Below, piece after piece: positions 3,481-41,509 of a stretch of 64,000 nt of DNA (within the stretch, counting starts at the first letter, position 1; the number at the start of each line of letters is the position of its first letter). A model generated the notes under the pieces. It saw nothing but the letters and a program-made list of their open reading frames with translations, did no database searches and was not told the origin of the DNA. A program made the position numbers and the translations under genes. Source of the stretch: a virus (taxonomy: Duplodnaviria > Heunggongvirae > Uroviricota > Caudoviricetes); the IMG/VR virus record IMGVR_UViG_3300031555_002005. The stretch is one strand, 5' to 3'.

Positions 3481-3500
3481 TAGAAAAGGAGAATGATATT

Positions 3501-6340: not shown

Positions 6341-6946
6341 ATGATTATTGAACAGAAACGTTATGAAATTGCAGATGTCTTTGGCCTTTTAGGAGAAGAA
6401 TATCTTTGTAGAAATAATGATGGCGGTCAGTCTGGAAGTGATATTGTTGTAGATGGATTTAATGTACATCCAATTTCTCTTCGATATATGACATTCTATC
6501 AGAAAGGTACAAAGTGTGTTTGTTGTGGAAAAGAAGGAACCCACTTCAAGCTTTGTGGCGATGAAAATACAAATCGAAGACATTTTAATCTGTATGCAGA
6601 AGATGGAACTCTAATGACAAAAGATCATATTTTGCCTAAGAGTAAGGGTGGTCTTAATAGAGTATCTAATATGCAAACAATGTGTACAGACTGTAATAGC
6701 GCAAAAGGCTCTCACTGCCCTGGCTATGAAAAAGAATATATTGTTGGCCGAAATGCAGAGGGAAAAGAAATTGCATTTTCCTCAATTGAAAAGGCAGTTT
6801 ATCACTTGGTAAACAATCATATGAAGAAAAAGAATACCAAAGAGGATTGGGCAAGAAAAGCTATTAATATTACTTTGCAATTACTCAATGTAATTGAAAC
6901 AGGAGAGTGTTATCAAAATAGAATTTGGACAAAGGAAATGAGATAA
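6341..6946 (+). CDS. HNH homing endonuclease
   Basis: DHILPKSKGG...N...CTDCNSAKG HNH motif. Confidence 0.75.
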   Translation: MIIEQKRYEIADVFGLLGEEYLCRNNDGGQSGSDIVVDGFNVHPISLRYMTFYQKGTKCVCCGKEGTHFKLCGDENTNRRHFNLYAEDGTLMTKDHILPKSKGGLNRVSNMQTMCTDCNSAKGSHCPGYEKEYIVGRNAEGKEIAFSSIEKAVYHLVNNHMKKKNTKEDWARKAINITLQLLNVIETGECYQNRIWTKEMR

Positions 6947-7563: not shown

Positions 7564-8085
7564 ATGAGCACAAACTATGGATGGAAATTATTTGAGCAAG
7601 ATCCTGATGGTAACTTATATCCTTTGTTTCTGGACAAGAATACTGTATACCCCATTGATGAGTGGATTAATGCAGAAATTCACTATGGTGCAAAGTTCGC
7701 ACCGAGACCCGGTATTCATTGTGGAATCATTCCTGCGGCTCCTTGGCTCATGTCTGTTGATGCTCTTGGCAATGGATTTTATAAGGGAAGGCGCAAGGGC
7801 TGGAAGCGTGTTTGGGCATACATTGAATATAACTGCACTATCAATTATAACGATGAGGTGTCCAAGCTAAAGAAAAAGTGTTTTGAAGACAGAATTCCTG
7901 AGAATGGTTGGTATTACTTCAAGGAATATGGTAAGGCAACTTGGATTATTACTGATAAAATTAAGATCTTGAGAACTATTACCGAAGAAGAAAGACAGAA
8001 GATTCTTGGTAATGTTGGTTATGACGAAGCCAAGGAATTTATTCCATATAAAAATGCAATTCTGAAACGCAAAAAGATTGCATAA
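7564..8085 (+). CDS. hypothetical protein (173 aa)
   Basis: AAAGGAGA RBS. Confidence 0.6.
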   Translation: MSTNYGWKLFEQDPDGNLYPLFLDKNTVYPIDEWINAEIHYGAKFAPRPGIHCGIIPAAPWLMSVDALGNGFYKGRRKGWKRVWAYIEYNCTINYNDEVSKLKKKCFEDRIPENGWYYFKEYGKATWIITDKIKILRTITEEERQKILGNVGYDEAKEFIPYKNAILKRKKIA

Positions 8086-8164: not shown

Positions 8165-8410
8165 ATGAAACAGTGCTTATTTAATACTTGTTCTGACAAT
8201 TGCTGTGCATATTGTAAGTTGCATCATTGTTCTATGACAGTAAAGCAGATGAAGGCAAAGAACTGTCTTCAGAAACAGTGCTGGCATTTGGCAAAGAATG
8301 AAGAACATCCGTATTGGCGACAGAGAGACAATACAAAACAGAAGAGAAAGAATAGAAAGCAAGCTATTAATGATTATGTAAATTCTGTAAGTGGAGGTAT
8401 TTCTGTATGA
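8165..8410 (+). CDS. Cys-rich small protein
   Basis: ORF downstream of the promoter. Confidence 0.5.
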   Translation: MKQCLFNTCSDNCCAYCKLHHCSMTVKQMKAKNCLQKQCWHLAKNEEHPYWRQRDNTKQKRKNRKQAINDYVNSVSGGISV

Positions 8411-8625
8411 ACAAGGCAAGACGTAAGGCAATTCAGGATGCAGTAAGAAAAATTGAAGATCTTGTGCAAAATATTTTAGACGATGAACAGGAAGCATACG
8501 ACAACATGCCCGAAAGTTTGCAAGAATCTGAAAACGGATTGAATTCAGCAGAAGCGCAGGAAAATCTTGAAGCAGCTATTGACGCACTTGAAGAGGCAAT
8601 TTCTTATCTGGAGGATATTTGCTAA
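8407..8625 (+). CDS. hypothetical acidic helical protein
   Basis: ORF with GGAGG RBS. Confidence 0.5.
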   Translation: MNKARRKAIQDAVRKIEDLVQNILDDEQEAYDNMPESLQESENGLNSAEAQENLEAAIDALEEAISYLEDIC

Positions 8626-9044
8626 TGAGCGAAAGAGAGAATTTTATTGTCGTCAATGGTCAAAAATATTATACCGGAACTGTTTTTCTGATTGATTTTC
8701 ATGGTAAGGTACAAGAGGCATCTTTTGTCTGCACTGTTGTCAAGACAAATAGAGTTCGATGTAAACTTGCTAACTCTTACTGGTTTATACATGCTGACGA
8801 TTTTCGCAAAAGAATTGTTGAGATCACAGATAAGGTTGATTCCAGTGTGCACATGCCCGTTACCAAAACAATGAAAGACACTGAGATTGGCAGCCTGTTT
8901 ATTGGCTGGCTGTGGTATATTTTTCTTATGGCAATTAGCACGATTTTTAAAAATGCAATTGGACTGTGGTGTTTTATTTCTTGGGTGTTTTTTACTTGGA
9001 GAGCTAAGAAAATAAAAGAGGAGGGGACTTACATTGAGTGGTAG
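8619..9044 (+). CDS. membrane protein (C-terminal TM helices)
   Basis: Hydrophobic C-terminus. Confidence 0.5.
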   Translation: MLMSERENFIVVNGQKYYTGTVFLIDFHGKVQEASFVCTVVKTNRVRCKLANSYWFIHADDFRKRIVEITDKVDSSVHMPVTKTMKDTEIGSLFIGWLWYIFLMAISTIFKNAIGLWCFISWVFFTWRAKKIKEEGTYIEW

Positions 9045-10008
9045 ACTTGAAAAAGAAAGACAAATCGAACAGCAGGTCATGAAAAAACTTGACTCTATGC
9101 CTTCTATCTTAACAGACTATTATTATAGTTTAATTGGTGCAGGCAAATCATATAGAACTGCAAAAGTATATATAGAAAATGTAATTCAGTTTGTAAAATT
9201 TACATTTGGAAAAAATATTAAAGAAGACTTTTATTCTAGTGTGAACGCAATCCATATCAATAGATATATTGCTTCTCTGAGAACAAAGACTGTAAAAGGA
9301 AAAACGGAGCGCACATCTGATAGTCACAAAACATTAAATTGGTCTTCTTTAAATTCGTTTTTTCAATTCTTGGTTCCAGATTATATTTCCACAAACCCTG
9401 TGGCAAATACAAAAAGACCCAAAATGAAAGATAATCCAAATGTTACATTCTTGGACACGGAAGAAATGGCAAAAATCTTTAAAAATGTTAAAGAAAAAGC
9501 GAATCCACGAATGTTAAATAGAGATATGTGCCTTTTAAAACTTGGGTTTGCTACGGGCTTACGTATTTCTGCAATAGTACAAATTGATATTGATGATTTA
9601 GATTTAAAACGTAATCAAATCAGAATTACAGAAAAGGGAGATCATGACGATTATGTGATTATAGGAGATAATCTTAAAGCGCAAGTTGAACTGTGGCTAA
9701 AAGACAGAGAGGAATATTTTAGTGATGTAAACAGTAATGCTCTGTTTGTTTCGCAAGAAAAGAATAGACTTAGCGCACGATCTGTTAAGGATTTAATGGA
9801 TAAATATACACTTGGCGCAACTGATAAAAAGGTTACACCTCATGTAATGCGTCACTCTTGTGCGACAAATTTGTATGAAAAAACTGGAGATATTTATCTG
9901 TGTGCAAGACAGTTACATCATAAAAATGTATCTACAACACAGAGATATGCTGAGCTGTCTAAAGAGAAACAGAAAAAGGCGGCGAATATTCTTGATGACA
10001 TGATTTGA
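9034..10008 (+). CDS. tyrosine recombinase/integrase (XerD-like)
   Basis: R...HxxR...Y catalytic residues (GLRISA, HVMRHSCAT, TQRYAE); GAGGAGGGG RBS; TTG start. Confidence 0.75.
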   Translation: MSGRLEKERQIEQQVMKKLDSMPSILTDYYYSLIGAGKSYRTAKVYIENVIQFVKFTFGKNIKEDFYSSVNAIHINRYIASLRTKTVKGKTERTSDSHKTLNWSSLNSFFQFLVPDYISTNPVANTKRPKMKDNPNVTFLDTEEMAKIFKNVKEKANPRMLNRDMCLLKLGFATGLRISAIVQIDIDDLDLKRNQIRITEKGDHDDYVIIGDNLKAQVELWLKDREEYFSDVNSNALFVSQEKNRLSARSVKDLMDKYTLGATDKKVTPHVMRHSCATNLYEKTGDIYLCARQLHHKNVSTTQRYAELSKEKQKKAANILDDMI

Positions 10009-12071: not shown

Positions 12072-12944
12072 ATGGAGGAAATTAATAATGGCGTTTTAAC
12101 AATACAAAAAATTTCAAATGAAAAACAAAATTGGTGTGTTTATTTACATACAAACAAAATAAATGGGAAGAAATATGTTGGTATCACTGGCCAAAATCCA
12201 GAAGATAGATGGAGAAGAGATGGTAAAGGATACAGAACTCAAAAGTATTTTTGGAGAGCAATTCAGAAATATGGATGGAACAACTTTAAACATGAAGTTG
12301 TTTTATATAACGAAACTTTTAAATACGCATGTGCCGTAGAAAAATGTTTAATAAAGCATTATAAATCTAATGATCCAAGGTATGGTTATAATCTTACTGA
12401 TGGTGGCGAAGGCGTTTCTGGTAGAACTCCATGGAATTATGGAATACCAATGTCTGACGAAATGAAAGAAATAATACGGAAAGCAAATACTGGGAGAAAA
12501 ATATCCGAAGAAACACGTAAAAAATTAATTAATGCAAAAAAGGGTAAGCCTCCCAATAACGCAGGGCGTCCAATGTCAGACGAAACAAAAAGAAAATTGT
12601 CAATGTCGCTTATTGGACGAGTGTTTGATGATGAGACAAAACAAAAAATTAGCAATTCCAAAAAAGGAAAATACACAGGCGTAGATAGCTCTAGACATCA
12701 CCCAATTTATTGCGTTGAATTAAATGAAATTTTTTGGGGTGCAAAGGCTGTGAAAGATAAGTATGGTTTTACCACATGTAATATTGGAGCATGTTGTAGA
12801 GGAGAGCGAAATTATGCCAATAAACATCCAGACACCGGAGAGAAGCTTCATTGGATCTATTGTGATGATGCAATAAAAAATGGATATATTACATCATTTC
12901 AACTTGATAATTACTATAAAGGATTAATGGACAAAGGAGATTAA
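12072..12944 (+). CDS. GIY-YIG homing endonuclease (I-TevI-like)
   Basis: NWCVYLHTN...KKYVGIT GIY-YIG motif plus NUMOD-like repeats; start codon uncertain. Confidence 0.75.
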   Translation: MEEINNGVLTIQKISNEKQNWCVYLHTNKINGKKYVGITGQNPEDRWRRDGKGYRTQKYFWRAIQKYGWNNFKHEVVLYNETFKYACAVEKCLIKHYKSNDPRYGYNLTDGGEGVSGRTPWNYGIPMSDEMKEIIRKANTGRKISEETRKKLINAKKGKPPNNAGRPMSDETKRKLSMSLIGRVFDDETKQKISNSKKGKYTGVDSSRHHPIYCVELNEIFWGAKAVKDKYGFTTCNIGACCRGERNYANKHPDTGEKLHWIYCDDAIKNGYITSFQLDNYYKGLMDKGD

Positions 12945-17547: not shown

Positions 17548-18603
17548 TTGGAACAAATCAATAATAATTGGTGTGTTTATATGCACACCAATATCATAAA
17601 TAATAAAAAATATATTGGAATTACGTGCAAGAAGCCAGAACATAGGTGGAATGAAGGCAAAGGATATAAACATAATAGATATTTTTGGAATGCAATTCAA
17701 AAATATGGTTGGGAAAATTTTAAACATGAAATTGTTTCATTTAACCTCTCTCACGATGATGCTTGTAAAATGGAAAAATATTTAATCGCTTATTATAGCT
17801 CGAATAATTCGATATATGGTTATAATCTTACAAGTGGTGGAGATAGTGGGTTTTTACATACTGAAGAAACAAAAGAGAGAATAAGACAAGCTAATAGTGG
17901 TATAAGCAATGCAATGTACGGTATTTCTCCAAAAGAACGAATGGATGAAGATACGTACAAACAATGGCTTTATAAGCAACAGACAAATAAACCACACGGT
18001 GAAGATAATCCACAATATGGTGTATCTCCAAAAGAGAGAATGGATGAAACAACATACCAAGAATGGTTGTACAAACAGAAAAATAACAAGCCAAAAGGGA
18101 AAGACCATCCTATGTATGGAGTGTCGCCACAGGAGCGAATGGACGAAGATACATACAAAAATTGGTTGGAAAAAATGAAAAATCCAGCCAAAAGCATATC
18201 TGTTAAGTGCATTGAAACAGATAAAATATATAAAAGTGCAAGAGAAGCAGAAAGAGAAACAGGAATTGCACACAGTTCAATTGTGAAGTCTTGTATGTCA
18301 GAAGATCATTCGGTAATTGCTGGCGGATTTCATTGGTGTTTGGGCAGCGATAATTTTTCTATGGAGGATCTTGGCTTAGAATATAAAGGTAAGAGGTACA
18401 TTAGGTGCATAGAGACTAATCGTATTTATAAAACAGCCAGAGAAGTTAAGAGAGAAACAGGTTTGGATGACTCATCCATTAACAAATGTTGCAAGGGATA
18501 TTATTTCAAAACAGTTGGTGGCCTTCATTGGGAATATATTTATTTGCTTCCAGAACAATACGAAGAATGGTGCAAAACCAACAACTTAACAACACAAAAT
18601 TAA
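17548..18603 (+). CDS. GIY-YIG homing endonuclease
   Basis: NWCVYMHTN...KKYIGIT; three tandem 32-aa linker repeats. Confidence 0.75.
   Translation: MEQINNNWCVYMHTNIINNKKYIGITCKKPEHRWNEGKGYKHNRYFWNAIQKYGWENFKHEIVSFNLSHDDACKMEKYLIAYYSSNNSIYGYNLTSGGDSGFLHTEETKERIRQANSGISNAMYGISPKERMDEDTYKQWLYKQQTNKPHGEDNPQYGVSPKERMDETTYQEWLYKQKNNKPKGKDHPMYGVSPQERMDEDTYKNWLEKMKNPAKSISVKCIETDKIYKSAREAERETGIAHSSIVKSCMSEDHSVIAGGFHWCLGSDNFSMEDLGLEYKGKRYIRCIETNRIYKTAREVKRETGLDDSSINKCCKGYYFKTVGGLHWEYIYLLPEQYEEWCKTNNLTTQN
17917..18190 (+). repeat. three tandem roughly 96-nt repeats within the GIY-YIG endonuclease gene
   Basis: YG(I/V)SPKERMDE(D/T)TY..WLYKQ repeated three times. Confidence 0.6.
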
Positions 18604-19726: not shown

Positions 19727-20254
19727 ATGAACCTAACAAAAGTAAGTAAATATATTAGTTTAATTTTGCGCCATAAGCCAGAAACAATTGGCATCAGCCT
19801 TGATGAGCATGGCTGGGCCAATGTAAAGGATCTTATTGATGGCGTAAATAAAACTCACAAGCTAGATATGAAAATGCTTGAAGAGATTGTAGCAACAGAT
19901 GATAAGCAGCGCTATTCTTTCAATGAAGATAAGACTATGATTCGTGCCAATCAGGGGCATTCTATTGATGTAGACGTGGAACTTGAAGAAGCTGTGCCTC
20001 CTGAGATGCTTTGGCATGGAACTGGTGTTAAATACATGAAGAGCATTGATACAGAGGGGCTTATTCCTAAGTCCAGATTGTATGTGCATTTGTCTACTGA
20101 TCCTAATACGGCAATGGAGGTCGGTAAGAGACATGGTGCACCTATGATTTACTGCATTGATGCGCTAAGAATGCATGAAGATGGATATAAGTTTTACAAA
20201 TCCAAGAACGGTGTGTGGTTAACTAAACATGTGCCTGCGGAGTATTTTAGGTAA
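19727..20254 (+). CDS. kptA: RNA 2'-phosphotransferase (Tpt1/KptA family)
   Basis: Strong similarity to E. coli KptA: LRHKPE, GW..V..L, RANQGHS, LWHGT, YVHLS, NGVWLT motifs. Confidence 0.85.
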   Translation: MNLTKVSKYISLILRHKPETIGISLDEHGWANVKDLIDGVNKTHKLDMKMLEEIVATDDKQRYSFNEDKTMIRANQGHSIDVDVELEEAVPPEMLWHGTGVKYMKSIDTEGLIPKSRLYVHLSTDPNTAMEVGKRHGAPMIYCIDALRMHEDGYKFYKSKNGVWLTKHVPAEYFR

Positions 20255-20714: not shown

Positions 20715-21509
20715 ATGCCCAAATTTTTTGTAAGTTCTGATATTCATAGTGCATATACTCCGTGGATGAAGGCATTAAAAGAAGCGGGTTTTGATGAAAA
20801 CAATCCTAGTCACAAAATTGTCGTATGCGGAGATTTGTTCGATAGACTGGATGAATCTATTCAGGTGTACGATTTTGTTAAGGACATGCTTGAAAAAGAT
20901 AAGTTAATTTACGTAAAAGGAAATCACGAAAGTCTAATGGAAGAATGCCTTGAAAGAGGATACCCTGGAAGGCATGATTGGTCAAATGGTACGGCAAAAT
21001 CTATTATTGACCTCGTTCCCCATGCAGAGAATTTTTATGATGGTTGCGCCGTCGTACGTGAAAAAATGAAATCTTTGTGGGGCAAGACTGTCAATTATTT
21101 TGAGACTAAGAATTATATTTTTGTACATGGCTGGATCCCGGTTATTTGCAAGGATAATTTGCCTAGCTATTATACTAGAAATAGAAAGTTTGAATTTAAC
21201 CCAGAGTGGCGTCATGCGCACTTTTCTGAGTGGGAACAGGCTAGATGGTTAAACGGTATGGATATGGCCAGAAAAGGCTTTGTGGAGCCTGAGAAGACTA
21301 TTGTATGCGGACACTGGCATTGCAGCTATGGTCATATGATGGATGATATGGCTAAGAATGGCCCATTTGATTGTATTGATGAATTTGGAGAAACTGCAAT
21401 TTGGGAACCTTATTATGGAAATGGTATAATTGCAATTGATCGCTGCACTGCACATACTGGAGAGGTTAATGTTCTTGTCATTGAGGATGAACTGTTGGAG
21501 GAATTATGA
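20715..21509 (+). CDS. calcineurin-like metallophosphoesterase (candidate 2',3'-cyclic phosphodiesterase/phosphatase)
   Basis: GDLFDR and GNHE motifs; AAGGAGG RBS. Confidence 0.7.
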   Translation: MPKFFVSSDIHSAYTPWMKALKEAGFDENNPSHKIVVCGDLFDRLDESIQVYDFVKDMLEKDKLIYVKGNHESLMEECLERGYPGRHDWSNGTAKSIIDLVPHAENFYDGCAVVREKMKSLWGKTVNYFETKNYIFVHGWIPVICKDNLPSYYTRNRKFEFNPEWRHAHFSEWEQARWLNGMDMARKGFVEPEKTIVCGHWHCSYGHMMDDMAKNGPFDCIDEFGETAIWEPYYGNGIIAIDRCTAHTGEVNVLVIEDELLEEL

Positions 21510-22857: not shown

Positions 22858-22983
22858 GACGGTGTAGCTCAGTTGGAAGAGCAATAGCCTTTGTCAGATG
22901 CAGGCTTGCACTAATTCAGTTCGATTCTGAAGTTTGGCACCATAAGCTATGGGTCGAGAGTTCGAGCCTCTCCACCGTCACCA
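22858..22983 (+). tRNA. interrupted tRNA. A 57-nt anticodon loop (about 50 extra nt) contains a tRNA-like minihelix ending in CCA. Would be tRNA-Lys (UUU) if the insert is excised.
   Basis: Acceptor GACGGTG/CACCGTC; D-arm; anticodon stem ATAGC/GCTAT separated by 57 nt; T-arm GAGAG-TTCGAGC-CTCTC; CCA encoded. Confidence 0.55.
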
Positions 22984-23450: not shown

Positions 23451-23604
23451 ATCCCAGTAGCTCAGCTGGATAGAGCAACGGTCTTCGGGGAGTTCGTTAA
23501 AAGGTAAGATACTTTAGGATAAAACCTAAGGAGATTACAGTTCGAGTCTGTTGCTCCCCACCATAAACCGTAGGTCGGGGGTTCGAGTCCCTCCTGGGAT
23601 ACCA
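23451..23604 (+). tRNA. interrupted tRNA. An 87-nt anticodon loop (23483-23569) contains a nested tRNA-like element (23487-23563). Would be tRNA-Arg (UCU) if the element is excised.
   Basis: Acceptor ATCCCAG/CTGGGAT; D-arm GCTC..GAGC; anticodon stem ACGGT/ACCGT separated by 87 nt; T-arm GGGGG-TTCGAGT-CCCTC; CCA encoded. Confidence 0.55.
23487..23563 (+). ncRNA. nested tRNA-like element inside the anticodon loop (acceptor GGGGAGT/GCTCCCC, anticodon arm TTAGG-ATAAAAC-CCTAA, T-arm, CCA)
   Basis: Folded by hand; ends ACCA; flanked by CTTC and TAA, which would join into a 7-nt loop CTTCTAA. Confidence 0.4.
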
Positions 23605-23610
23605 AAATAT

Positions 23611-23745
23611 CGGGAACAGGTGGAATGGTATACACATCGGAACCATAACTGAGTTTTGATAAAAACTTGCCAACAGCAAATACGTGGACGTAAAATCCGA
23701 CGCTTTTGCAAGCATCCTTGGTTCGAATCCAAGGGTTCCCGACCA
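23611..23745 (+). tRNA. class-II-like tRNA with an extra stretch of about 47 nt (a 54-nt segment between the anticodon-stem strands)
   Basis: Acceptor CGGGAAC/GTTCCCG; anticodon stem TCGGA/TCCGA separated by 54 nt; long variable hairpin; T-arm CCTTGG-TTCGAAT-CCAAGG; CCA encoded. Confidence 0.4.
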
Positions 23746-23748
23746 AAT

Positions 23749-23823
23749 GGTCCCGTCGTCTAGTGGCTAGGACTCAGGATTTTCATTCCTGCAACAGGGT
23801 TTCGAATACCCTCGGGATCACCA
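23749..23823 (+). tRNA. tRNA-Glu (UUC), CCA encoded
   Basis: Anticodon loop TTTTCAT; T-arm AGGGT-TTCGAAT-ACCCT. Confidence 0.8.
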
Positions 23824-23896: not shown

Positions 23897-24541
23897 ATGG
23901 AACAGAAGAAAAAAGATTATTCCAAGTATAGAAAAAAGTATTGGAGAGAACAAATAAAACATAGAGGTGTTCAATTTCTAGGTGGTGTGTGTCGTAATTG
24001 CGGAGGCGCTTTTGAAGATTGTTGCTATGATTTTCATCATTTAAATCCAAAAGAAAAAGACTTCACGATTGGAAATGTACAAACTAACGGAGCAAAAAGT
24101 TGGTTTAAAGTACGTGACGAATTAAAGAAGTGTGTACTATTATGTGCGAACTGTCATCGTCTTGCTCATGCAGGACTAATTGAAACAGATCTTCAGTTAT
24201 ATTTTAATGATGAATACTATGAATGGGATTTGACAAAATTTAAACTAATTGATTCATCAACTGGTTTGCCCAAGGATGCAAATATTACATGTCCTATATG
24301 CGGACAATACAAATCTCCAAATGCAAATAAATGTTCAGAGTGTGCAATGAAAGAGCAAATAAGATTTGAAGTCTCACGAGAAGAATTAAAAGAAATGATA
24401 TACACTATGGCATTTACTGATATTGGTAAAAAATATGGGGTTTCTGATAATTCTATTAGAAAAAGATGTGAAAAATTTGGATTACCATCTTACAAGAAAG
24501 ATATTCTAAAATACTCACCAGAAGAGTGGGCATCTATTTAG
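23897..24541 (+). CDS. HNH homing endonuclease
   Basis: HHLNPKEKD...CANCHRLAH. Confidence 0.75.
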   Translation: MEQKKKDYSKYRKKYWREQIKHRGVQFLGGVCRNCGGAFEDCCYDFHHLNPKEKDFTIGNVQTNGAKSWFKVRDELKKCVLLCANCHRLAHAGLIETDLQLYFNDEYYEWDLTKFKLIDSSTGLPKDANITCPICGQYKSPNANKCSECAMKEQIRFEVSREELKEMIYTMAFTDIGKKYGVSDNSIRKRCEKFGLPSYKKDILKYSPEEWASI

Positions 24542-25214: not shown

Positions 25215-25700
25215 ATGAATATTGAACAAGTAATTCTTTATAAAAGAATCGAAAAAGTACTTAAGAATTACCTAATAAATGACTTGGGTGATTCACAAAT
25301 GAAGAAAAAGGAAAGCTATTGTTTGAATTGTGGAGTTTCTATACCAAATAGAAATAAATATTGCTCAAACAAATGCCAACTAGATTTCCAATATAAAGAG
25401 TATATACAGAGATGGAAAAATGGGCTTGAAGATGGTATGAGAGGTGAATATCTTATATCAGTACACATTAGAAAATATTTAATGGAAAAGTTTGATAACA
25501 AATGCTCAAAATGTGGATGGGGAGAAATAAATCCTTATACCAAAAATGTACCACTAGAAGTCCATCATAAAGATGGAGATTATACCAATAATTCAGAAGA
25601 CAATCTTGACTTACTATGTCCAAATTGTCACTCATTAACAGAAACATATAAAGCTGCAAATAAAGGCAATGGAAGAAAAGATCGTAAAAAATACACATAA
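25215..25700 (+). CDS. HNH homing endonuclease
   Basis: EVHHKDGD...NLDLLCPNCH. Confidence 0.7.
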   Translation: MNIEQVILYKRIEKVLKNYLINDLGDSQMKKKESYCLNCGVSIPNRNKYCSNKCQLDFQYKEYIQRWKNGLEDGMRGEYLISVHIRKYLMEKFDNKCSKCGWGEINPYTKNVPLEVHHKDGDYTNNSEDNLDLLCPNCHSLTETYKAANKGNGRKDRKKYT

Positions 25701-27322: not shown

Positions 27323-27922
27323 TTGACATTGGCGAAACATGTAACTACAGAAGAAATAGCAACAAGAATAAAAAATACTTTTAAACAAAATGTTTCATTA
27401 GTTGGAGAATATAAGAATAAACGATCAAAATTAACATTACATTGTAATGATTGTGGACATGAATGGGAATCTCCATCAAGTAGTGTTATATATGGAGATA
27501 GACACGAGTGTCCTCGGTGTGGAAGACATGCAAAACAATTGAATGAATTTCAATGTACAAACTGTGGACAAGTTGTGTATCGTAAAGATTCAGACATTAA
27601 AAAGAATCAAACAGGTAATTTCTTTTGTTCTCAACAATGTGGAAATGAGTTTAAAAATCGAATACGAAAAGAAAGTGGAGAATGGGATAACTCGTTAAGC
27701 TATAGACGGAAAGCATTTGAAACTTATGAACATTTATGTTGTGTATGCGGTTGGAATGAAGATGAAAGAATTTTAGAAGTTCATCATAAAGATGAAGATC
27801 GTACAAACAATATGGTAAATAATCTATGTATTCTATGTCCTACATGTCATAGAAAAATAACATTAGGATATTATGAATTAACAGATGATTTCAAGCTAGT
27901 TGATAAAAATCAAAAGAATTAA
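27323..27922 (+). CDS. HNH homing endonuclease (start uncertain)
   Basis: EVHHKDEDRTNN...CPTCHRK; N-terminal CxxC pairs. Confidence 0.65.
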   Translation: MTLAKHVTTEEIATRIKNTFKQNVSLVGEYKNKRSKLTLHCNDCGHEWESPSSSVIYGDRHECPRCGRHAKQLNEFQCTNCGQVVYRKDSDIKKNQTGNFFCSQQCGNEFKNRIRKESGEWDNSLSYRRKAFETYEHLCCVCGWNEDERILEVHHKDEDRTNNMVNNLCILCPTCHRKITLGYYELTDDFKLVDKNQKN

Positions 27923-28212: not shown

Positions 28213-28240
28213 TTGACAAATCAGAATTATATGATATAAT
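28213..28240 (+). promoter_or_regulatory. sigma-A-type promoter for the tRNA-like cluster
   Basis: TTGACA-N16-TATAAT, then the conserved element. Confidence 0.5.
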
Positions 28241-28269: not shown

Positions 28270-28560
28270 TAATAAAGGCGCACACAGCAAATTTACTATA
28301 TGGTTAAAATTTTTTATGTTTGTGTTAAAAAATGAGAAGGTTCAAATCCTTTAAAAATTTCATGCGCCTTGACAAAAAAAGACACTAACAGCAACTTTAT
28401 TAACTATACAATTTGGGCTTGTAAATATTGTTAATAGTGTCTTGAATATGGGAACGTCCGGTGGCAGTAAATAAGTGCATGGAGTGGGCAGCACACACAG
28501 CAATTTTACTTAACAATTTCTGGAAAAAATTGACTCCTTGGTTCAACTCCGAGGGTTCCC
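28270..28560 (+). ncRNA. three hairpin-enclosed RNA units, each carrying a CACANACAGCAA(A)TTT motif
   Basis: 8-bp closing stems AAGGCGCA/TGCGCCTT, AAGACACT/AGTGTCTT, AGTGGG/CCCACT. T-arm-like GGTTCAAATCC inside unit 1. Confidence 0.35.
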
Positions 28561-28582
28561 AAAAATCCCACTAACTTAATAT

Positions 28583-28712
28583 GCGGAAGTAGCTCAGCTG
28601 GGAGAGCAATAGTATTTATTTAAAAATGTGTTTAGATTAACACTAACAGCAATTTTTATTTAAAGAAGAAGTTGGGGACTATGGGTCGTAGGTTCGAGCC
28701 CTACCTTCCGCA
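28583..28712 (+). tRNA. interrupted tRNA: 64-nt anticodon loop carrying the ACAGCAATTTTTA motif
   Basis: Acceptor GCGGAAG/CTTCCGC; D-arm GCTC-AGCTGGGA-GAGC; anticodon stem ATAGT/ACTAT separated by 64 nt; T-arm GTAGG-TTCGAGC-CCTAC. Confidence 0.5.
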
Positions 28713-28724
28713 TCAACTAAATAT

Positions 28725-28852
28725 GCCAGAGTAGCTCAGTTGGTAGAGCACGTATATATCAACCAACGTGGTATGAAAATTTCACGCACAGCAATTTTAA
28801 TGATTCTTGCCTTTTAAGCACGTTGTCGTGGGTTCGAGTCCCATCTCTGGCA
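28725..28852 (+). tRNA. interrupted tRNA: about 55 extra nt between the D- and T-arms carrying the ACAGCAATTTTA motif
   Basis: Acceptor GCCAGAG/CTCTGGC; D-arm GCTC-AGTTGGTA-GAGC; T-arm GTGGG-TTCGAGT-CCCAT. Confidence 0.45.
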
Positions 28853-28862
28853 AACTTTATAT

Positions 28863-28981
28863 GGCGCAATGGTGTAATGGTAGCACAACGTAATAATTGA
28901 GGTTTGTTAAAATCTTAAACTGCAATTTTACAATGCATGATCACGCCGTAGGTTGAAGTTCGATTCTTCATTGCGTCTCCA
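28863..28981 (+). tRNA. interrupted tRNA-like: about 45 extra nt carrying a CTGCAATTTTA motif; CCA encoded
   Basis: Acceptor GGCGCAA/TTGCGTC; D-arm GTGT-AATGGTA-GCAC; T-arm TGAAG-TTCGATT-CTTCA. Confidence 0.4.
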
Positions 28982-28997
28982 AATTAACAATTAAATA

Positions 28998-29118
28998 AAG
29001 GCACATACAGCAATTTTAAATTCTGAAGCAGCCATTTTGCTTTGTAGTATAACTGGTTAGTACGCAGGACTGATAATCCTGAAATGCTGGTTCGAGTCCA
29101 GTCTTTAAAAATGTGCCT
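28998..29118 (+). ncRNA. 9-bp-stem-enclosed unit: the motif plus a tRNA-like 3' three-quarter (anticodon arm CAGGA-CTGATAA-TCCTG, T-arm)
   Basis: Outer stem AAGGCACAT/ATGTGCCTT; no canonical acceptor pairing found. Confidence 0.35.
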
Positions 29119-29353
29119 TGCAATTAAAAGAGAGACGAACAGCAAATTGATTGAATTAAAGAAGATAGAAAACTTATTTACTAATTATTGTTGTTTTATT
29201 TATGTATTAGATTATTTATCACTTTTAAGTCTCTCGAATAAATAAAATCTCCAAAGACGCTAACAGCAATGTACGACTTGACTGCAAATCAATAATCGTA
29301 AAATGCGTCTTGGATTTTAGTAATAAAATCAAAACTTTTAGGAGGAACAAAAA

Positions 29354-30907
29354 ATGGAATTTATGAGTGCAGTTAGACAGACTCTCAATAATGAGTACAA
29401 TGTGTCTATCACTGAGAACGGCGCAGTTGGTTATAGAACCACTGGCAAGGAGCTGCTTGACCTGAACTTTGCAGTAGCATCTCTTCGTAAGATGACCGAT
29501 GCAGAAGTCGCAAAGAGATTCAAGAAGGCTTTTTGTGAAGATCAGGTTCTCGCAATGAAGTGGCTGTTCTACGCAAGAGACGTTCGTGGTGGTTTGGGTG
29601 AGCGTAGACTGTTCAGAGTTGTTCTGGCAGATCTGGTACAGTCCAATCCTGAAATGGTTATTCCTGTCATGAATCTGATTCCTGAGTATGGTCGCTACGA
29701 TGACCTGTGGTGTCTGTTAGATGACAAGGAAGCAGCTAATGTGATTTATCAGATTGTTGATAATCAGCTGAAGCGTGACTGGGAAAACATGGCTTCAAAG
29801 AAGCCTATTTCTATTCTGGCAAAGTGGATGCCTTCTATCAATGCATCTTCTGCTAAGACCAAGGAATACGGAAAGAAGCTGTGCAAGGCTCTGAAGATGA
29901 CTGAGCGTGAATACCGCAAGGCTCTGAGCAAGCTTCGTGCATATCTGGATGTTGTTGAAGTTAAGATGTCCGATAAGAACTGGTCTGCAATTAAGTATGA
30001 AGCAGTTCCTTCTCGTGCAAATCTGATTTACAACAGCGCATTCCTGAGAAATGACGAAGCAAGACGTAGAGAATATCTTGGCCAGCTTGAAAAGGGCGAG
30101 ACTAAGATTAACGCATCTACTCTGTTCCCTCACGATATTGCTCATAAGTATACTAACAACTCATGGGGTCGTGGTCTAAAGGCAAAGGATGCAACCATTG
30201 AAGCTCTGTGGAAGGCGCTACCTGACACTGTAAATGGCTGTGGTAATACTATTGTTGTTGCTGACGGCTCTGGTAGTATGACTTGCACTGTTGACAATCA
30301 CTCTCGTGTTACTGCACTTGAAGTTGCAAACGCACTGGCAATTTACTTTGCTGAGCACTCTTCTGGTCAGTTCAAGGATAAGTACATTACTTTCTCTGAA
30401 AGACCTCAGTTTGTTGACTTCAGCAATTGTAAGACTCTGCATGACAAGCTACACACTGCACTAATGCATAATGAAGTTGCAAATACTAACATCGAAAAGG
30501 TGTTTGATTTGATTCTGACTTCTGCGGTCAATAACCATATGCATCAGGAAGATCTTCCTCAGAACATCCTGATCATCTCTGATATGGAGTTTGATAGCTG
30601 TGCAACTTCTGGCAATGTTGATCGTTGGAGCTACCGTAACAGACCTACTCAGAAGCTATTCGATGTTATCGCTCAGAAGTACGCAAGAGCAGGTTACAAG
30701 ATGCCTCGTCTGGTATTCTGGAATGTAAACTCTCGCACTGGTACTATTCCTGTAAAGGAAAATGACCTTGGTGTGGCACTGGTCAGCGGTTTCTCTGTAA
30801 ACGTTGCCAAGATGGTCATGAGTGGCAAGACTGATCCTTTCGAGTGTCTGCTTGAAACTCTGAACTCTGAGAGATATGCTCCTGTTGAGGAAGCTTTAAA
30901 TCAGTAA
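29354..30907 (+). CDS. vWA-domain protein (DUF2828-like; possibly a Ro60/TROVE-related RNA-binding protein)
   Basis: MIDAS motif VVADGSGSM in the C-terminal half; helical N-terminal domain; GGAGG RBS. The family assignment is from memory. Confidence 0.5.
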   Translation: MEFMSAVRQTLNNEYNVSITENGAVGYRTTGKELLDLNFAVASLRKMTDAEVAKRFKKAFCEDQVLAMKWLFYARDVRGGLGERRLFRVVLADLVQSNPEMVIPVMNLIPEYGRYDDLWCLLDDKEAANVIYQIVDNQLKRDWENMASKKPISILAKWMPSINASSAKTKEYGKKLCKALKMTEREYRKALSKLRAYLDVVEVKMSDKNWSAIKYEAVPSRANLIYNSAFLRNDEARRREYLGQLEKGETKINASTLFPHDIAHKYTNNSWGRGLKAKDATIEALWKALPDTVNGCGNTIVVADGSGSMTCTVDNHSRVTALEVANALAIYFAEHSSGQFKDKYITFSERPQFVDFSNCKTLHDKLHTALMHNEVANTNIEKVFDLILTSAVNNHMHQEDLPQNILIISDMEFDSCATSGNVDRWSYRNRPTQKLFDVIAQKYARAGYKMPRLVFWNVNSRTGTIPVKENDLGVALVSGFSVNVAKMVMSGKTDPFECLLETLNSERYAPVEEALNQ

Positions 30908-31006: not shown

Positions 31007-31073
31007 GTGGAGTCCTGGGTAAGACTTAAAACTGCCCATTCAGACATTAACAGCAAACAATAATTACTTGGTT

Positions 31074-31148
31074 GCGAGGTTAGCTTAGCTGGTCTAAAGC
31101 AATAGATGTGAAAATCTATGATCACTGGTTCGAACCCAGTACCTTGTG
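31074..31148 (+). tRNA. tRNA-like with a non-canonical (6- or 8-nt) anticodon loop; identity undetermined; no CCA
   Basis: Acceptor GCGAGGT/ACCTTGT with G-U pairs; D-arm GCTT..AAGC; ATAGA-TGTGAAAA-TCTAT; T-arm ACTGG-TTCGAAC-CCAGT. Confidence 0.4.
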
Positions 31149-31176
31149 TTTAAGTGATAATGTCTAGTTTCTATAT

Positions 31177-31544: not shown

Positions 31545-32465
31545 ATGAGAAAAGGTAGTATTGGCGCAATTCTTCTGGCATTTCTGATCTTTGGTGGACT
31601 GCTTCTATGTCTAGCATGCACAGAAAAGATTCCGACTGGTTATGTTGGTGTTGTTTACAACATGAGCGGTGGCGTAGATGGTGAAGTGCTTTCCCAGGGC
31701 TTCCATATCGTAGCACCCACTAAGAAGGTAACCACTTATTCTGTAGGACTAGAGCAGAGTTATCTGTCTTCTGAAGATGTTGGCGACTCCCCGAAGGATG
31801 AAAGTTTCAACATTCCTACTTCTGATGGTAAGACTGTCCGTGTAAATCTAGAATTCTCTTATCGTTTTGATTCCGAGCGTGTTGCAGAAACCTTTACTAT
31901 GTTTAAGGGTAAGTCTGGTGAAAACATTAAGGAAACCTTTATTAAGCCCAAGGTAATGGCATGGACTCAGGAAGTTTCCGCAAAGTATCCTGTTACAGAC
32001 ATTTTTGGTGACAAGCGTACTGCTATCAATGCAGAGCTAGACATTTATCTGCGTGAAAAGTTTGCACCTTATGGCATTATTATTGACACTGTAAACTTTA
32101 CTGACATTTCTGTTGACAATGAAACTGCCGCAGCAATTCAGAAGAAGGTTAATGCACAGCAGGAACTAGAGCTTGCAAACATTGAAGCAGAAACTGCAAA
32201 GATTCAGGCCCAGAAGGACAAAGAGGTTGCACGTGTTCAGGCAGAAAAGGACAAGGAAGTTGCCGCTATTAAGGCAGAGCAGAAGATTATTGCAGCCGAA
32301 GCAGATGCCGAGGCACTAAGAATTGCATCTGAAGCAGAAGCAGAAGCAAACCGTGAGATCGCAGCTTCTCTGACTCCTCAGCTAATCGAGAAGATTAAGT
32401 ATGAGCAGTGGAATGGTCAGATGCCCAAGGTCACTGGTGGCAGTTCTATTGTAAGTATTGATTAA
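31545..32465 (+). CDS. SPFH/band-7 (prohibitin/HflK-like) membrane protein
   Basis: N-terminal TM; SPFH core; Ala/Glu-rich coiled-coil repeats. Confidence 0.7.
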   Translation: MRKGSIGAILLAFLIFGGLLLCLACTEKIPTGYVGVVYNMSGGVDGEVLSQGFHIVAPTKKVTTYSVGLEQSYLSSEDVGDSPKDESFNIPTSDGKTVRVNLEFSYRFDSERVAETFTMFKGKSGENIKETFIKPKVMAWTQEVSAKYPVTDIFGDKRTAINAELDIYLREKFAPYGIIIDTVNFTDISVDNETAAAIQKKVNAQQELELANIEAETAKIQAQKDKEVARVQAEKDKEVAAIKAEQKIIAAEADAEALRIASEAEAEANREIAASLTPQLIEKIKYEQWNGQMPKVTGGSSIVSID

Positions 32466-34476: not shown

Positions 34477-34505
34477 GACAAAATGGTAAAATGTGTTATA
34501 ATAAC
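34477..34505 (+). promoter_or_regulatory. sigma-A-type promoter
   Basis: TTGACA-N16-TATAAT, then the conserved element. Confidence 0.55.
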
Positions 34506-34535
34506 AATACAAATTTAATGAAGGGAGTATACATA

Positions 34536-35630
34536 GTGACATATCTTGACTACGCTGCCACAACGCCAATATGTGATGCAGCACAGCAAACAATAATTAA
34601 GTATTTAAATTACTTTGGCAACCCATCAAGTTCTCATGAGTTTGGAAGACAATCCAGACTGTTAATCGAAGATGCACGTGAAAGAATTGCCCAATGTATC
34701 AACGCAGATCCTAGTGAAATTTACTTCACGTCTGGAGGTTCTGAAGCAAATACACTTGCGTTAAACAATAGGAGATATTCAGCGTCTTCAAAATTTGAGC
34801 ATCATTCTGTGGTGTCAAATTGGCCAAAAATTTCTATTACAAAAGATGGATTTATCAAGGTACATAAACTAAATAATATGATCTCAGAATGGTGGGAGGT
34901 TCCATTTGATGTTATGTCTTGCATGTATGTGAACAATGAAATTGGAACAATACAGCCAGTAAAAGAGCTATCTACTGTAGCGCATAGATATGGTATTTTA
35001 CTTCACACTGACGCAGTTCAGGCAATGCCTTATGTACACATAGACGTTAAAGATTTGGGTTGCGATATGTTATCTGCAAGTGGGCATAAGTTTGGTGCAC
35101 CAAAAGGCATAGGATTTTTATATGCAAATTCTCGTTCAAGAATCAAGCCGATCATTAATGGAGGCAAGCAAGAAAACTCTATGCGCCCAGGTACTGAAAA
35201 TATTTTAGGCATTCTGGCCATGGCTTCGGCGCTTGAAGACGCTGTGGAACATATGGATGAACGTAATGAGCGCATTAAATCTTTAAGAGACAGTCTGCTT
35301 GATAAGTTACTTAAAATTGATGGAGCGCATCTTAATGGCTCACTTGAAAATCGCATTCCAGGCAACATCAATATCAGATTTGATGGGGTTTACGGTTCAA
35401 GACTAGTTACATTGTGCAGTTTATATGGAGTTTATATTTCCGCAGGATCTGCATGCAACGAAGGCACCACTGAGCCAAGCCACGTGCTTAAAGCAATTAA
35501 TCTATCAGACGAAGAAGCATTAAGTAGCGTAAGAATTACTTTGGGGCATCAAACTACCGAAGAAGATGTTAACATAGCAGCAGATATTATTACAGCACTA
35601 GTTAAAAGGATTCGTTCAGATGAATCTTAA
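34536..35630 (+). CDS. cysteine desulfurase (NifS/IscS-like, class V aminotransferase)
   Basis: SGHKFGAPKG PLP-lysine motif; GAAGGGAG RBS with GTG start at 34536. The track start at 34491 overlaps the promoter. Confidence 0.75.
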   Translation: MTYLDYAATTPICDAAQQTIIKYLNYFGNPSSSHEFGRQSRLLIEDARERIAQCINADPSEIYFTSGGSEANTLALNNRRYSASSKFEHHSVVSNWPKISITKDGFIKVHKLNNMISEWWEVPFDVMSCMYVNNEIGTIQPVKELSTVAHRYGILLHTDAVQAMPYVHIDVKDLGCDMLSASGHKFGAPKGIGFLYANSRSRIKPIINGGKQENSMRPGTENILGILAMASALEDAVEHMDERNERIKSLRDSLLDKLLKIDGAHLNGSLENRIPGNINIRFDGVYGSRLVTLCSLYGVYISAGSACNEGTTEPSHVLKAINLSDEEALSSVRITLGHQTTEEDVNIAADIITALVKRIRSDES

Positions 35631-40123: not shown

Positions 40124-41509
40124 ATGGCTTATACAGCATTTATTACAAGAATTAAGAATCTGCGTACACACCCTAAGGCGGATCGACTGCAGATGGGTGA
40201 GTGCTTTGGTAACACTGTAATTGTCTCTCTGGAATACGAGGACAACCAGCTTGGCATTTACTTCCCTTCTGATGGACAGATTAGCACTGCATTTGCAGAA
40301 GCAAATAACCTGCTTCGCAAGAAGGATGAAAACGGCAATAACATTGGCGGTTACATGGATCCCGACAAGCGCAACGTCACTGCTATTAAGCTTCGTGGAG
40401 AAAAGTCTGATGGCCTGTTCCTGCCTCTGAAGTCTCTTGAGCCTTTTGGTGACATTACCACTCTGCGTGAGGGTGACCGAATTGATAACTTTAATGGACA
40501 TGAGATTTGCTGCAAGTATGTACCTTTTAAGCGTGAACGTACTGCCGCAGGTGGAGCAGGAAAGCGCATTAAGCGTAGAGCTAAGAGAAGCATTGCACCT
40601 CTGTTTTATGAGCATATGGACACTGAGCAGCTCGCCTACAATCTGGCAGCTTTTAAGCCCGGTGACGAGATTGAAATCACTCTAAAGATGCATGGCACTT
40701 CTCAGCGAACTGCACACCTACCTGTGTTTAAGGACTACAAGCGCACAATCTGGGACAAACTATTCCGTCGTGAAGGTACTCCTGTTTATGATTGGGGTTA
40801 CGTCTCTGGCACTCGTCGTACTGTTCTAGAGAATTTTGAAGGTGGATATTATGGATCTAACGAGTTCCGTGAAGCACATTCTAAGTTCTTTGAGGGCAAG
40901 CTGTGGAAGGGCGAAGAGGTCTACTACGAGGTGGTTGGTTTCACTCATACTGGCGCACCTATTATGTCTACGGCAGACAATAAGAAGCTGAACGACAAGG
41001 AGTTTGTTAAGCAGTATGGAAAGACTACTACTTTCTCTTATGGTTGTGCCCCTGATGGTGTAAATTCCGCAGATGGAGTTATTCCTCAGTCTGATATCTA
41101 CGTTTACCGTATGACAATGACCAATGAAGATGGTGATGTTGTCGAGTACACTCCTGATTTCATGCGCTATCGTTGTGAGCAGATGGGTGTTAAGACTGTC
41201 CCTGTGATGTGGAAGGGCACTATTCCTTACGCAGATTGGCTTGAAGCTAACACGTGGGAAAGCGCAGGGCATTATGCAATTACTCGTGCAGAAAAGTACT
41301 ATGATGGTCCCGACCCTATTGGCAAGACTCATGTCCGTGAAGGCGTTGTAGTTCGTATTCTGAACCGTCCTAAATTCTGTGCATACAAGCATAAGAACTG
41401 GTCTTTCAAGGCTCTTGAAGGAATTGTTAAGGTTGAAGCTGAGGCTCCTGATATGGAAGAAGCCGATGGCATTAATGAGGAAGTGATGACTGATGAATTT
41501 TCACAGTGA
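40124..41509 (+). CDS. RNA ligase (Rnl2/Rnl5-type nucleotidyltransferase) fused to an N-terminal EMAP/Trbp111-type tRNA-binding OB domain
   Basis: N-terminus HPKADRL...SDGLF resembles a tRNA-binding OB fold. Ligase motif I LKMHGTS (KxHG), motif IV EGVVVR, motif V KHKNWSFK. Confidence 0.7.
   Translation: MAYTAFITRIKNLRTHPKADRLQMGECFGNTVIVSLEYEDNQLGIYFPSDGQISTAFAEANNLLRKKDENGNNIGGYMDPDKRNVTAIKLRGEKSDGLFLPLKSLEPFGDITTLREGDRIDNFNGHEICCKYVPFKRERTAAGGAGKRIKRRAKRSIAPLFYEHMDTEQLAYNLAAFKPGDEIEITLKMHGTSQRTAHLPVFKDYKRTIWDKLFRREGTPVYDWGYVSGTRRTVLENFEGGYYGSNEFREAHSKFFEGKLWKGEEVYYEVVGFTHTGAPIMSTADNKKLNDKEFVKQYGKTTTFSYGCAPDGVNSADGVIPQSDIYVYRMTMTNEDGDVVEYTPDFMRYRCEQMGVKTVPVMWKGTIPYADWLEANTWESAGHYAITRAEKYYDGPDPIGKTHVREGVVVRILNRPKFCAYKHKNWSFKALEGIVKVEAEAPDMEEADGINEEVMTDEFSQ

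Follow-up and report, generated by a model that had tools for sequence, protein, structure and literature searches.

Ro60 and the Y RNAs have long been studied and have stayed functionally elusive, and the use of such proteins by phages has barely been explored. Y RNA genes, in which tRNA-like domains occur, are found near the Ro60 genes and share their strand, and the Ro60-binding motif of YrlA is GNCGAAN0-1G (PMC4201824). Phages with a TROVE-type Ro60 and adjacent Y-like RNAs are already known (PMC4201824, PMC12135203). Furthermore, gp130 of phage Bas63, which has a Ro60-like structure and is encoded upstream of tRNAs, counters the Ppl defence system, and the authors of that study speculated that there might be Y RNAs among the annotated tRNAs (PMC11482910). 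Overexpression of gp53 of phage LeBron is toxic (PMC13148394). Here we analysed a stretch of 64,000 nucleotides (nt) from a virus of the Caudoviricetes (IMG/VR record IMGVR_UViG_3300031555_002005), referred to below as the window, in which the gene for a Ro60-like protein of 517 amino acids (aa) is accompanied by ten small RNA modules, nine upstream and one just downstream. We describe the conserved RNA element of these modules, hereafter the handle, its linkage to the gene and the architecture of the protein.

A covarying RNA handle near the gene

The heptamer ACAGCAA was found on the + strand of the window in eight copies at 28284-29269 and in one copy at 31050, and a possible variant, ACTGCAA, lies at 28919; the whole-window count of ACAGCAA was 22, compared with 13.7 expected. 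Every ACAGCAA copy near the gene comes immediately after a helix strand. The partner of this strand lies 40-130 nt downstream in the free-standing units, of which units 2 and 7 are examples (helix strands in Table 1), while in three interrupted tRNAs it lies just upstream, giving a local hairpin followed by the motif within the anticodon arm.

To describe this element, a plain MAFFT alignment of 106 non-redundant units, with both helix strands in register, was used for the analysis of covariation and for the construction of a covariance model (R1), which was run in all searches with filters off. The consensus was AAAGRCRC-NN-ACAGCAA-UUUU. The handle helix was paired at 85.5% overall and at 92-97% in the seven core pairs, and pair changes on both sides were observed in 221 cells, compared with 58 +/- 11 in shuffled alignments (none of 500 shuffles reached the observed value). 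The covariation score was 0.60, against 0.22 after shuffling and 0.09-0.20 when the partners were slid relative to each other. RNAalifold recovered the helix de novo from a subset of 14 sequences, and compensatory changes were seen at each of the seven pairs. Of 267 distinct units, 205 formed a closing helix of 7 bp or more, as against 70 of 267 when the downstream sequence was shuffled. As judged from this covariation, the handle is a helix of 7-9 bp (AAGRCRC/GYGYCUU), one strand of which runs straight into a predicted single-stranded AC(A)GCAA.

The scan of both strands of the window with R1 gave seven matches with E < 0.05, all of them on the + strand and at 28272-29314 or 31038-31169, and five of the seven were absent from the training set. 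The first-pass annotation, made from the sequence alone, had noticed tRNA-like or hairpin units bearing a motif next to the gene, and both the motif copies, eight upstream and one downstream, and the covariance model agree with it. R1 gave no match to the element at 28449..28562, which RNAfold folds into a terminal stem and a T-arm hairpin. The ACTGCAA at 28919 could be either a handle variant or a genuine Cys anticodon loop, and its assignment is uncertain. In Rfam 15, no family matched the handle units even at E <= 5; apart from artefactual YrlA matches (see below), only tRNAs were found. A conserved handle RNA with tRNA-mimic payloads thus appears to be undescribed, none being described in the searchable literature.

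Away from the gene, an isolated ACAGCAA at 23673 (23640-23750) has a closing helix of only 5 bp, CTTGC/GCAAG, after which comes a hairpin resembling a T-arm. R1 gave no match at this site, which may be a degenerate unit.

Linkage of the handle to the gene

The surroundings of the gene were compared among 6 loci from cultured phages, 80 from IMG/VR (protein identity 38-81%) and 80 from bacterial genomes. Over the first loci collected (L001-L087), ACAGCAA was found 470 times on the strand of the gene, compared with 75 times on the opposite strand, and almost no copies lay on the opposite strand near the gene. Its density was 3.0/kb in the 500 nt before the gene and 1.4/kb in the 500 nt after it, against a background of approximately 0.1-0.2/kb. 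Within 600 nt of the gene, at least one copy was present in 71 of 86 phage loci and at least two in 59 of 86; among the bacterial-genome loci, 66 of 80 carried the motif, either in the 1 kb before the gene or in the 0.7 kb after it.

The same linkage was observed with the covariance model in individual phages. The complete 75-kb genome of Mycobacterium phage JoeDirt gave exactly two R1 matches, at 40156-40215 and 40358-40409 of the record, both in the 360-nt gap right after gp52. Salmonella phage Mushroom showed four matches between the tRNAs just after the gene (7710-7782, 7877-7940, 8332-8405 and 8419-8549 in locus coordinates), Listeria phage LMTA-34 three matches just before the gene, and Enterococcus phage VRE9_4 one match, likewise just before the gene. 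Since the motif persisted in loci without any tRNA (25 of 29 and 42 of 52), and since the tRNA region of phage T5 (20000-60000), which lacks the gene, gave no R1 match, the handle is linked to the gene and not to tRNAs; the idea that it might be a general feature of phage tRNA arrays was rejected on these grounds. Of all that accompanies the gene, the RNA handle is by far the most constant.

The linkage was also approached from the side of the RNA. A reverse search of IMG/VR with the 14-base pattern AAGACACNNACAGCAA yielded 80 loci, of which 14 hold the gene, in all 14 cases on the same strand, and approximately 27 further loci showed well-formed units; this search was diluted by chance matches to the pattern and by short loci.

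Two side observations concern other RNAs of tRNA arrays. Eight RNAs of the T5 tRNA region are annotated as 'stable RNAs with unknown functions'; some of these resemble tRNAs, and none matched the handle model. In Listeria phage LMTA-34, the segment at 1983-2081 (locus coordinates), inside the tRNA array, matched the Rfam 'drum RNA' with 50.2 bits (gathering score 43).

Architecture of the protein and its likeness to Ro60

The open reading frame (ORF) of 517 aa was confirmed on the + strand; it starts with ATG and is preceded by AGGAGG. The first-pass annotation had described a helical N-terminal half and a C-terminal vWA domain with an intact MIDAS (metal-ion-dependent adhesion site), a description with which the ORF, the AlphaFold model, the Pfam matches and the invariant residues all agree. 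Its assignment to the DUF2828 family was borne out by Pfam, in which DUF2828 (PF11443) matched with E 2.5e-35 and 122.6 bits (cut-off 29) and DUF7788 (PF25043) matched aa 298-492 with E 3.4e-45 and 154.5 bits (cut-off 27.1). Both models exceed their gathering scores, placing the protein in the DUF2828/DUF7788 family. In addition, VWA_2 was matched below threshold, and PHROG 850, "RNA-binding protein", matched aa 4-509 with E 1.2e-141. Pfam detected no nuclease or ligase domain in the protein.

This family is common in phages: 706 phage records matched the protein, 701 of them covering at least 80% of the query, and 6955 representatives matched in a library clustered at 50% identity. Its members occur in phages of the Felixounavirus type (Escherichia coli and Salmonella), in cluster L mycobacteriophages and in phages of Listeria (including the Pecentumvirus LMTA-34), Staphylococcus, Campylobacter, Enterococcus, Bacillus and Vibrio. 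"Ro-like RNA binding protein" is the annotation of the homologues in cluster L mycobacteriophages.

When the protein was aligned with 117 diverse homologues, the five MIDAS residues listed in Table 1, the first three of which lie in the string VVADGSGSM at aa 300-309, were invariant, and in the N-terminal half many basic and aromatic residues were nearly invariant. The C-terminal domain thus has the DxSxS...T...D metal-site residues and the Rossmann-like alpha/beta fold of a vWA domain with a MIDAS. The AlphaFold2 model built from the homologue alignment, with a mean predicted local distance difference test (pLDDT) value of 94.7 and a predicted template-modelling (pTM) score of 0.93, is helical at aa 3-290 and alpha/beta in the C-terminal half, the arrangement of Ro60, in which a helical (HEAT-like) repeat domain is joined to a C-terminal vWA domain.

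The relation to Ro60/TROVE that the first-pass annotation had suggested was supported by structure comparison and, for the TROVE domain itself, was not recovered by sequence and profile methods. In Foldseek, the only matches with E <= 0.001 were three entries, all of them full-length Ro60/TROVE proteins. This comparison did not place the N-terminal half in an unrelated fold. When the family profile was compared with the PDB, the best four matches were all Ro60/TROVE chains (E 0.011-0.62), with the MIDAS stretch alone aligned. The comparison by hhalign with a Ro60 alignment of three sequences (Xenopus, human and Deinococcus) covered 181 columns of the vWA part only, with 76% probability and E 2.3e-5, and a single-sequence phmmer search of the PDB gave only noise. 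Membership of the TROVE family was not demonstrated, no TROVE domain being seen by Pfam, the PDB profile or hhalign; nor could homology of the N-terminal half to Ro60 be shown by sequence, because hhalign aligned the vWA domain alone. Judged from its predicted structure, the protein is built like the ring-shaped Ro60, and at the level of sequence profiles its vWA domain is specifically Ro60-like.

Payloads of the units and interrupted tRNAs

The handle encloses payloads of several kinds. In the window, unit 1 carries a mini tRNA-like module with an acceptor-like stem and a T-arm, GGTTCAAATCC, with a weak Rfam tRNA match at 28308-28360. The payload of unit 2 is a hairpin with a UUUGGGC loop (Pro-UGG-like), and that of unit 9 is the stem-loop TTGA-CTGCAAA-TCAA, a mimic of the Cys-GCA anticodon loop. 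Within unit 7 lies a tRNA-Ile(GAU)-like module (29041-29110) whose acceptor stem is truncated, three acceptor pairs being missing in the Rfam tRNA alignment, and unit 10 encloses a non-canonical tRNA-like module (31073-31149), which is 'tRNA-???' in ARAGORN and has an Rfam tRNA score of 52.7 bits. Units 7 and 10 thus contain tRNA-like bodies with defective acceptor or anticodon features. Of the interrupted tRNAs with a handle, the Pro-UGG-like one scored 51.1 bits with the Rfam tRNA model and 15.6 bits with R1 (28636-28690), and the Lys-UUU-like one scored 47.9 bits and 21.3 bits (E 0.022, 28776-28837), respectively.

Among the relatives, a hairpin with a 7-nt YUNNNRN loop was found in 75 of 202 units with a closing helix, compared with 17 expected from shuffles. 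The commonest loops were CUUUUAA (Lys-UUU, at the top), CUUGAAA, CUGCAAA (Cys-GCA), CUGUUAA (Asn-GUU) and UUUGGGN (Pro-UGG), and some T-loops were also present. Fourteen Lys-type units were compared, the phages being at 47-81% protein identity; their 5-bp stem was paired at 98.6%, with compensatory changes at four of the five pairs; the loop and the loop-closing A-U pair were invariant, the invariance of the loop being a matter of construction, as the units were chosen for it. The commonest version of the payload, UUGA-CUUUUAA-UCAA, is presumably almost the same as the anticodon arm of E. coli tRNA-Lys.

Interrupted tRNAs of the window were located at 22858-22980, 23451-23601, 28583-28712 and 28725-28852. 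The first two of these contain inserts of approximately 50 and 80 nt, respectively, without the ACAGCAA handle. Inspection by eye gives CU|...|CAUAA for the flanks, placing the inserts between nt 33 and 34 of CAU anticodon loops, and the ends of each insert pair with each other; these inserts may be short tRNA introns of a kind unusual for a phage. The window also encodes a Tpt1/KptA RNA 2'-phosphotransferase (E 3e-48), a calcineurin-like phosphoesterase and an RNA-ligase-like protein, a set that resembles the healing-and-sealing enzymes of fungal and plant-type tRNA repair.

A possible Ro60/Y-RNA-like particle and its alternatives

On balance, we consider it likely that the protein and the units would form a particle resembling that of Ro60 and Y RNA, in which the handle is bound by the protein and serves as a tether for tRNA-like modules, and which acts in a conflict over tRNAs. 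The first-pass annotation had already raised the idea of a Ro/Y-RNA-like particle, and the idea has gained strength, as the covarying handle tracks the gene across very distant phages in the way that Y RNA genes track Ro60 genes (PMC4201824). We infer the physical binding, the processing into separate RNAs and the biological role. The protein would engage the handle in the manner in which Ro60 engages the basal helix of Y RNAs, and this binding would stabilize and display the tRNA mimics, with the variable payload imitating a part of a tRNA, which may be an anticodon stem-loop, a minihelix of the T-arm type or an entire tRNA-like body. During infection, such particles could take part in the contest over tRNAs by acting as decoys or adaptors for those nucleases of the host that are directed at anticodons; alternatively, they could serve as a platform for the tRNA repair and processing enzymes of the phage. 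The protein may also bind the interrupted tRNAs and control their quality. A conflict over tRNAs is, in our view, the most likely role, and the anti-defence phenotype of gp130 fits it.

Several observations weigh against this particle. The handle is unlike the Ro60-binding motif of Y RNA, GNCGAAN0-1G, the element being AAGRCRC-NN-AC(A)GCAA with a GYGYCUU partner. On the side of the protein, Pfam gave no TROVE (PF05731) match at E <= 1, the profile methods align only the vWA part, and the likeness of the N-terminal half to Ro60 comes from a predicted structure. Anticodon-loop-like payloads make up only about one-third of the units. The exact motif was missing within 600 nt of the gene in 15 of 86 loci, some of which have ACCGCAA or ACUGCAA variants and some nothing. 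Well-formed units also occur in some stretches without such a gene, for example, IMG/VR GVMAG-M-3300017963-53_000001. No conserved protein partner accompanies the gene; when neighbouring ORFs were clustered, no family exceeded 12 of 86 loci, and those that recurred were Band_7, Aminotran_5, Thg1 and TnpB. Finally, gp130 alone, supplied from a plasmid or from phage T7, restores plaquing on Ppl (PMC11482910). The Ppl activity at least may not need the phage's own RNAs, and because gp130 alone protects T7, the RNAs may regulate or extend the function of the protein rather than being required for it. As a separate observation, the GVMAG stretch, which bears the label of a giant-virus metagenome-assembled genome, contains three tandem well-formed units approximately 270 nt apart (157-714), and no DUF2828 gene was found in the 11 kb examined.

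The alternative that survives best takes the handle units not as partner RNAs acting in trans but as cis-acting leader or trailer structures, by way of which the protein, or RNases, would govern how the protein's own transcript and the neighbouring tRNAs are expressed and processed, for example, by autoregulatory binding in the 5' untranslated region. Most copies of the motif do lie within 500 nt upstream of the start codon and on the same strand, and a promoter-like site that agrees with the consensus in all positions lies just before unit 1 (Table 1). The scan lists no terminator-like site between this promoter-like site and the gene, the nearest ones falling inside the gene, and the handle units and the gene are possibly co-transcribed from one consensus promoter. 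The sufficiency of gp130 against Ppl is also in keeping with a role in cis. Against these points, units are also present downstream of the gene (at the 1.4/kb given above) as well as between and inside tRNAs, as many as ten copies are found per locus, and the payload is under selection of its own: in the Lys-type units, the stem covaries while the loop is kept, a pattern not required of a simple site of binding or cleavage. We therefore regard control in cis as unlikely to account for the units.

The handle might instead mark small tRNA introns or mobile inserts, with the protein as a splicing or folding cofactor acting together with Tpt1, the phosphoesterase and the RNA ligase, and with the free-standing units as decayed copies. 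The three tRNAs that carry the handle in anticodon-arm inserts of 61-66 nt, the RNA repair genes of the window and the homing endonucleases scattered through the array speak for this reading. Most loci with both gene and handle, however, have no tRNA nearby, and JoeDirt has two free-standing units with its ordinary tRNAs 22 kb away; in the window itself, the two other interrupted tRNAs lack the handle. Moreover, the protein has no nuclease or ligase domain, and the free-standing units keep covarying helices, which argues that they are not decaying. A link with introns or inserts is accordingly, in our estimate, quite improbable.

Very unlikely, finally, is that the protein is a vWA/MIDAS protein-protein adaptor that directly inhibits a host defence protein and that its RNA neighbours are unrelated, for example, promoter-proximal structures of the tRNA region: an invariant MIDAS is typical of the binding of protein ligands, gp130 alone transfers Ppl resistance to T7, and LeBron gp53 overexpressed alone is toxic to mycobacteria, but the 290 N-terminal residues match, in the predicted structure, the RNA-binding ring of Ro60 and no other adaptor, and the handle tracks the gene strand-specifically in phages of Actinobacteria, Firmicutes and Proteobacteria, down to 38% identity, with none in a gene-free tRNA array.

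Beyond the particle proposed here, a wider interpretation may be offered tentatively. Many phage lineages could possess a hitherto undescribed class of Y-like RNAs, in which a universal handle is joined to anticodon mimics (Lys-UUU, Cys-GCA, Asn-GUU, Pro-UGG, Met-CAU and others) or is inserted in whole tRNAs. A divergent Ro60-like protein would be loaded with these RNAs, which would neutralize anticodon-targeting defences of the host as decoys or adaptors.

The protein family is thus widespread, as the 706 phage records indicate, and a probable member has been reported to defeat a bacterial defence, its RNA partner having only been guessed at. The handle is a precise, conserved and easily mutated RNA element, through which the question of the RNA partner can be put to a direct test in model phages. 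Should the anticodon-loop mimics be functional, viral tRNA mimicry of a new kind would be at work in the arms race over tRNA cleavage, and the mimics would also represent a compact natural scaffold by which RNA hairpins are displayed on a protein.

Genomic setting

The gene sits within a large same-strand tRNA array (22.7-34 kb) with 21 tRNA genes by ARAGORN and 22 Rfam tRNA matches. Among the homologues, 48 of 80 IMG/VR loci had a tRNA not more than 2 kb from the gene, and all 247 tRNAs of the 80 loci were on the strand of the gene. When the segment 27000-33000 of the window was compared by megablast with 50,697 phage records, no match was found, and by this sequence comparison the phage is one known from metagenomes only. 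Relatives of the protein with 83-100% identity are on metagenomic contigs of up to 178 kb. In bacterial genomes, the nearest homologues, at 52-69% identity, belong to gut Clostridia (Oscillospiraceae, Lachnospiraceae and Christensenella, including the complete genome AP018533.1); these are probably prophages, and for this reason they suggest a host range for the phage of the window.

The window also contains genes for a reverse transcriptase, a tyrosine integrase-like protein, two GIY-YIG and several HNH homing endonucleases, and three HNH genes are interspersed in the tRNA array in a T5-like arrangement. Just downstream of the gene lies a Band_7/SPFH gene (31545-32465), whose family was encountered in 11 of the 86 loci in the vicinity of the gene, for example, at 3351-4316 of locus L047. 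Nine loci have a class-V aminotransferase of the cysteine-desulfurase-like type (34491-35630 in the window), and six have a Thg1-like tRNA-His guanylyltransferase; genes of both types are present in the neighbourhoods of the relatives. RNA repair genes were also found elsewhere, namely, RtcB and an RNA ligase in the Listeria phage and polynucleotide kinase and an RNA ligase in JoeDirt.

Table 1. Coordinates of the gene, RNA units and other features in the window, with the basis of each assignment
Feature	Position	Strand	Basis
Ro60-like protein gene (DUF2828 + DUF7788, PHROG 850), 517 aa	29354..30907	+	
N-terminal all-helical domain, aa 1-290, predicted to be structurally like the TROVE/HEAT-repeat ring of Ro60	29354..30223	+	
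vWA domain (DUF7788), aa 298-492, complete MIDAS D304, S306, S308 (nt 30263-30277), T378, D410	30245..30829	+	Pfam, invariant columns, PDB profile, hhalign
Promoter-like site, perfect consensus (TTGACA, 16 nt, TG-TATAAT; 12/12 matches), just upstream of unit 1	28213..28240	+	
Unit 1: helix AAGGCGCA/TGCGCCTT, ACAGCAA at 28284	28272..28373	+	R1 36.3 bits, E 7e-6, outside training set
Unit 2: helix AAGACACTA/TAGTGTCTT, ACAGCAA at 28388	28376..28446	+	R1 50.3 bits, in training set
tRNA-like element: acceptor-like stem, T-arm, ACAGCAA at 28497	28449..28562	+	Motif position, RNAfold
Interrupted tRNA, Pro-UGG-like; 61-nt anticodon-loop insert, hairpin GTGTT/AACAC then TA-ACAGCAA (28646)	28583..28712	+	Rfam, R1, inspection by eye
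Interrupted tRNA, Lys-UUU-like (loop CTTTTAA); 66-nt insert, hairpin CGTG/CACG then C-ACAGCAA (28788)	28725..28852	+	Rfam, R1
tRNA-like element, ARAGORN Cys, ACTGCAA at 28919	28863..28981	+	ARAGORN, RNAfold
Unit 7: helix AAGGCACAT/ATGTGCCTT, ACAGCAA at 29007	28995..29122	+	R1 35.5 bits, E 1e-5, outside training set
Unit 8: helix GAGAGAC/GTCTCTC, ACAGCAA at 29139, A/U-rich payload	29127..29240	+	R1 19.9 bits, E 0.048 (29127-29192); RNAfold closes the outer helix
Unit 9: helix AAGACGC/GCGTCTT, ACAGCAA at 29263, 40 nt before the start codon	29251..29314	+	R1 38 bits, in training set; RNAfold
Unit 10: helix AGACATTA/TAATGTCT, ACAGCAA at 31050, 130 nt past the stop codon	31038..31169	+	R1 23.9 bits, E 0.0056, outside training set; RNAfold
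Tpt1/KptA, phosphoesterase and RNA-ligase-like genes	19727-20254, 20715-21509, 40124-41509		
Reverse transcriptase, integrase-like and homing endonuclease genes	1208-2467, 9034-10008, 12072-12944, 17548-18603, 6341-6946, 23897-24541, 25215-25700, 27323-27922		

Comparison with known systems

Among the closest described systems is that of Ro60/Rsr and Y RNA (Rsr with YrlA or Yrn1; PMC4201824). As in that system, the candidate partner RNAs are encoded next to the protein and on its strand, and they have a modular build, with a basal helix that is presumed to bind the protein and a tRNA-mimic module, and the locus is linked to RNA repair genes. The modular build of Y RNA was found in the window, where units 1, 7 and 10 enclose tRNA-like modules, and anticodon stem-loops are enriched among the same-strand, gene-proximal units. 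The two systems differ in the protein, which here belongs to another Pfam family, has no match to the TROVE hidden Markov model and has a shorter helical domain, and also in the RNA, whose conserved element is a helix followed by AC(A)GCAA and not GNCGAAN0-1G. While YrlA has T and D arms, the payloads here are mostly bare anticodon stem-loops; and while Ro60 loci have one or two RNA units, up to ten are present per locus here, and the handle can sit inside tRNAs. Neither the window nor the six phage loci gave a match to Y RNA or YrlA (RF00019, RF02553) at the gathering score. Two weak YrlA matches, the better with 25.1 bits against a gathering score of 69, were rejected as artefacts spanning two adjacent tRNAs, in which the T-arm of the first is combined with the D-arm of the second.

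Among phages, phiRo60 of Thermus phage phiLo (PMC12135203) is, unlike the protein described here, a recognizable TROVE protein, and its RNAs carry a CGAA motif and recruit the polynucleotide phosphorylase of the host. Bas63 gp130 is very probably an orthologue of the gene, because Bas63 is a Felixounavirus and the Ounavirinae carry the gene at this position, directly upstream of the tRNA array, in 251 records. In that case the preprint guessed that annotated tRNAs were the Y RNAs, whereas the candidate partners found here are unannotated handle hairpins between the tRNAs. The 'Ro-like RNA binding protein' of cluster L (JoeDirt gp52 and LeBron gp53) belongs to the same family, with 32-35% identity over the full length, and handle RNAs are present; these phages differ in being temperate siphoviruses of a host with 65% G+C and in having no tRNA array next to the gene.

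The protein of the window is therefore a new member of a family already annotated as Ro-like, and the likeness to Ro60 is not in itself new. In our analysis, the handle RNA and the Ro60-like protein together are best described as a variation on the Ro60/Y-RNA theme that is distinct in every sequence-level feature.

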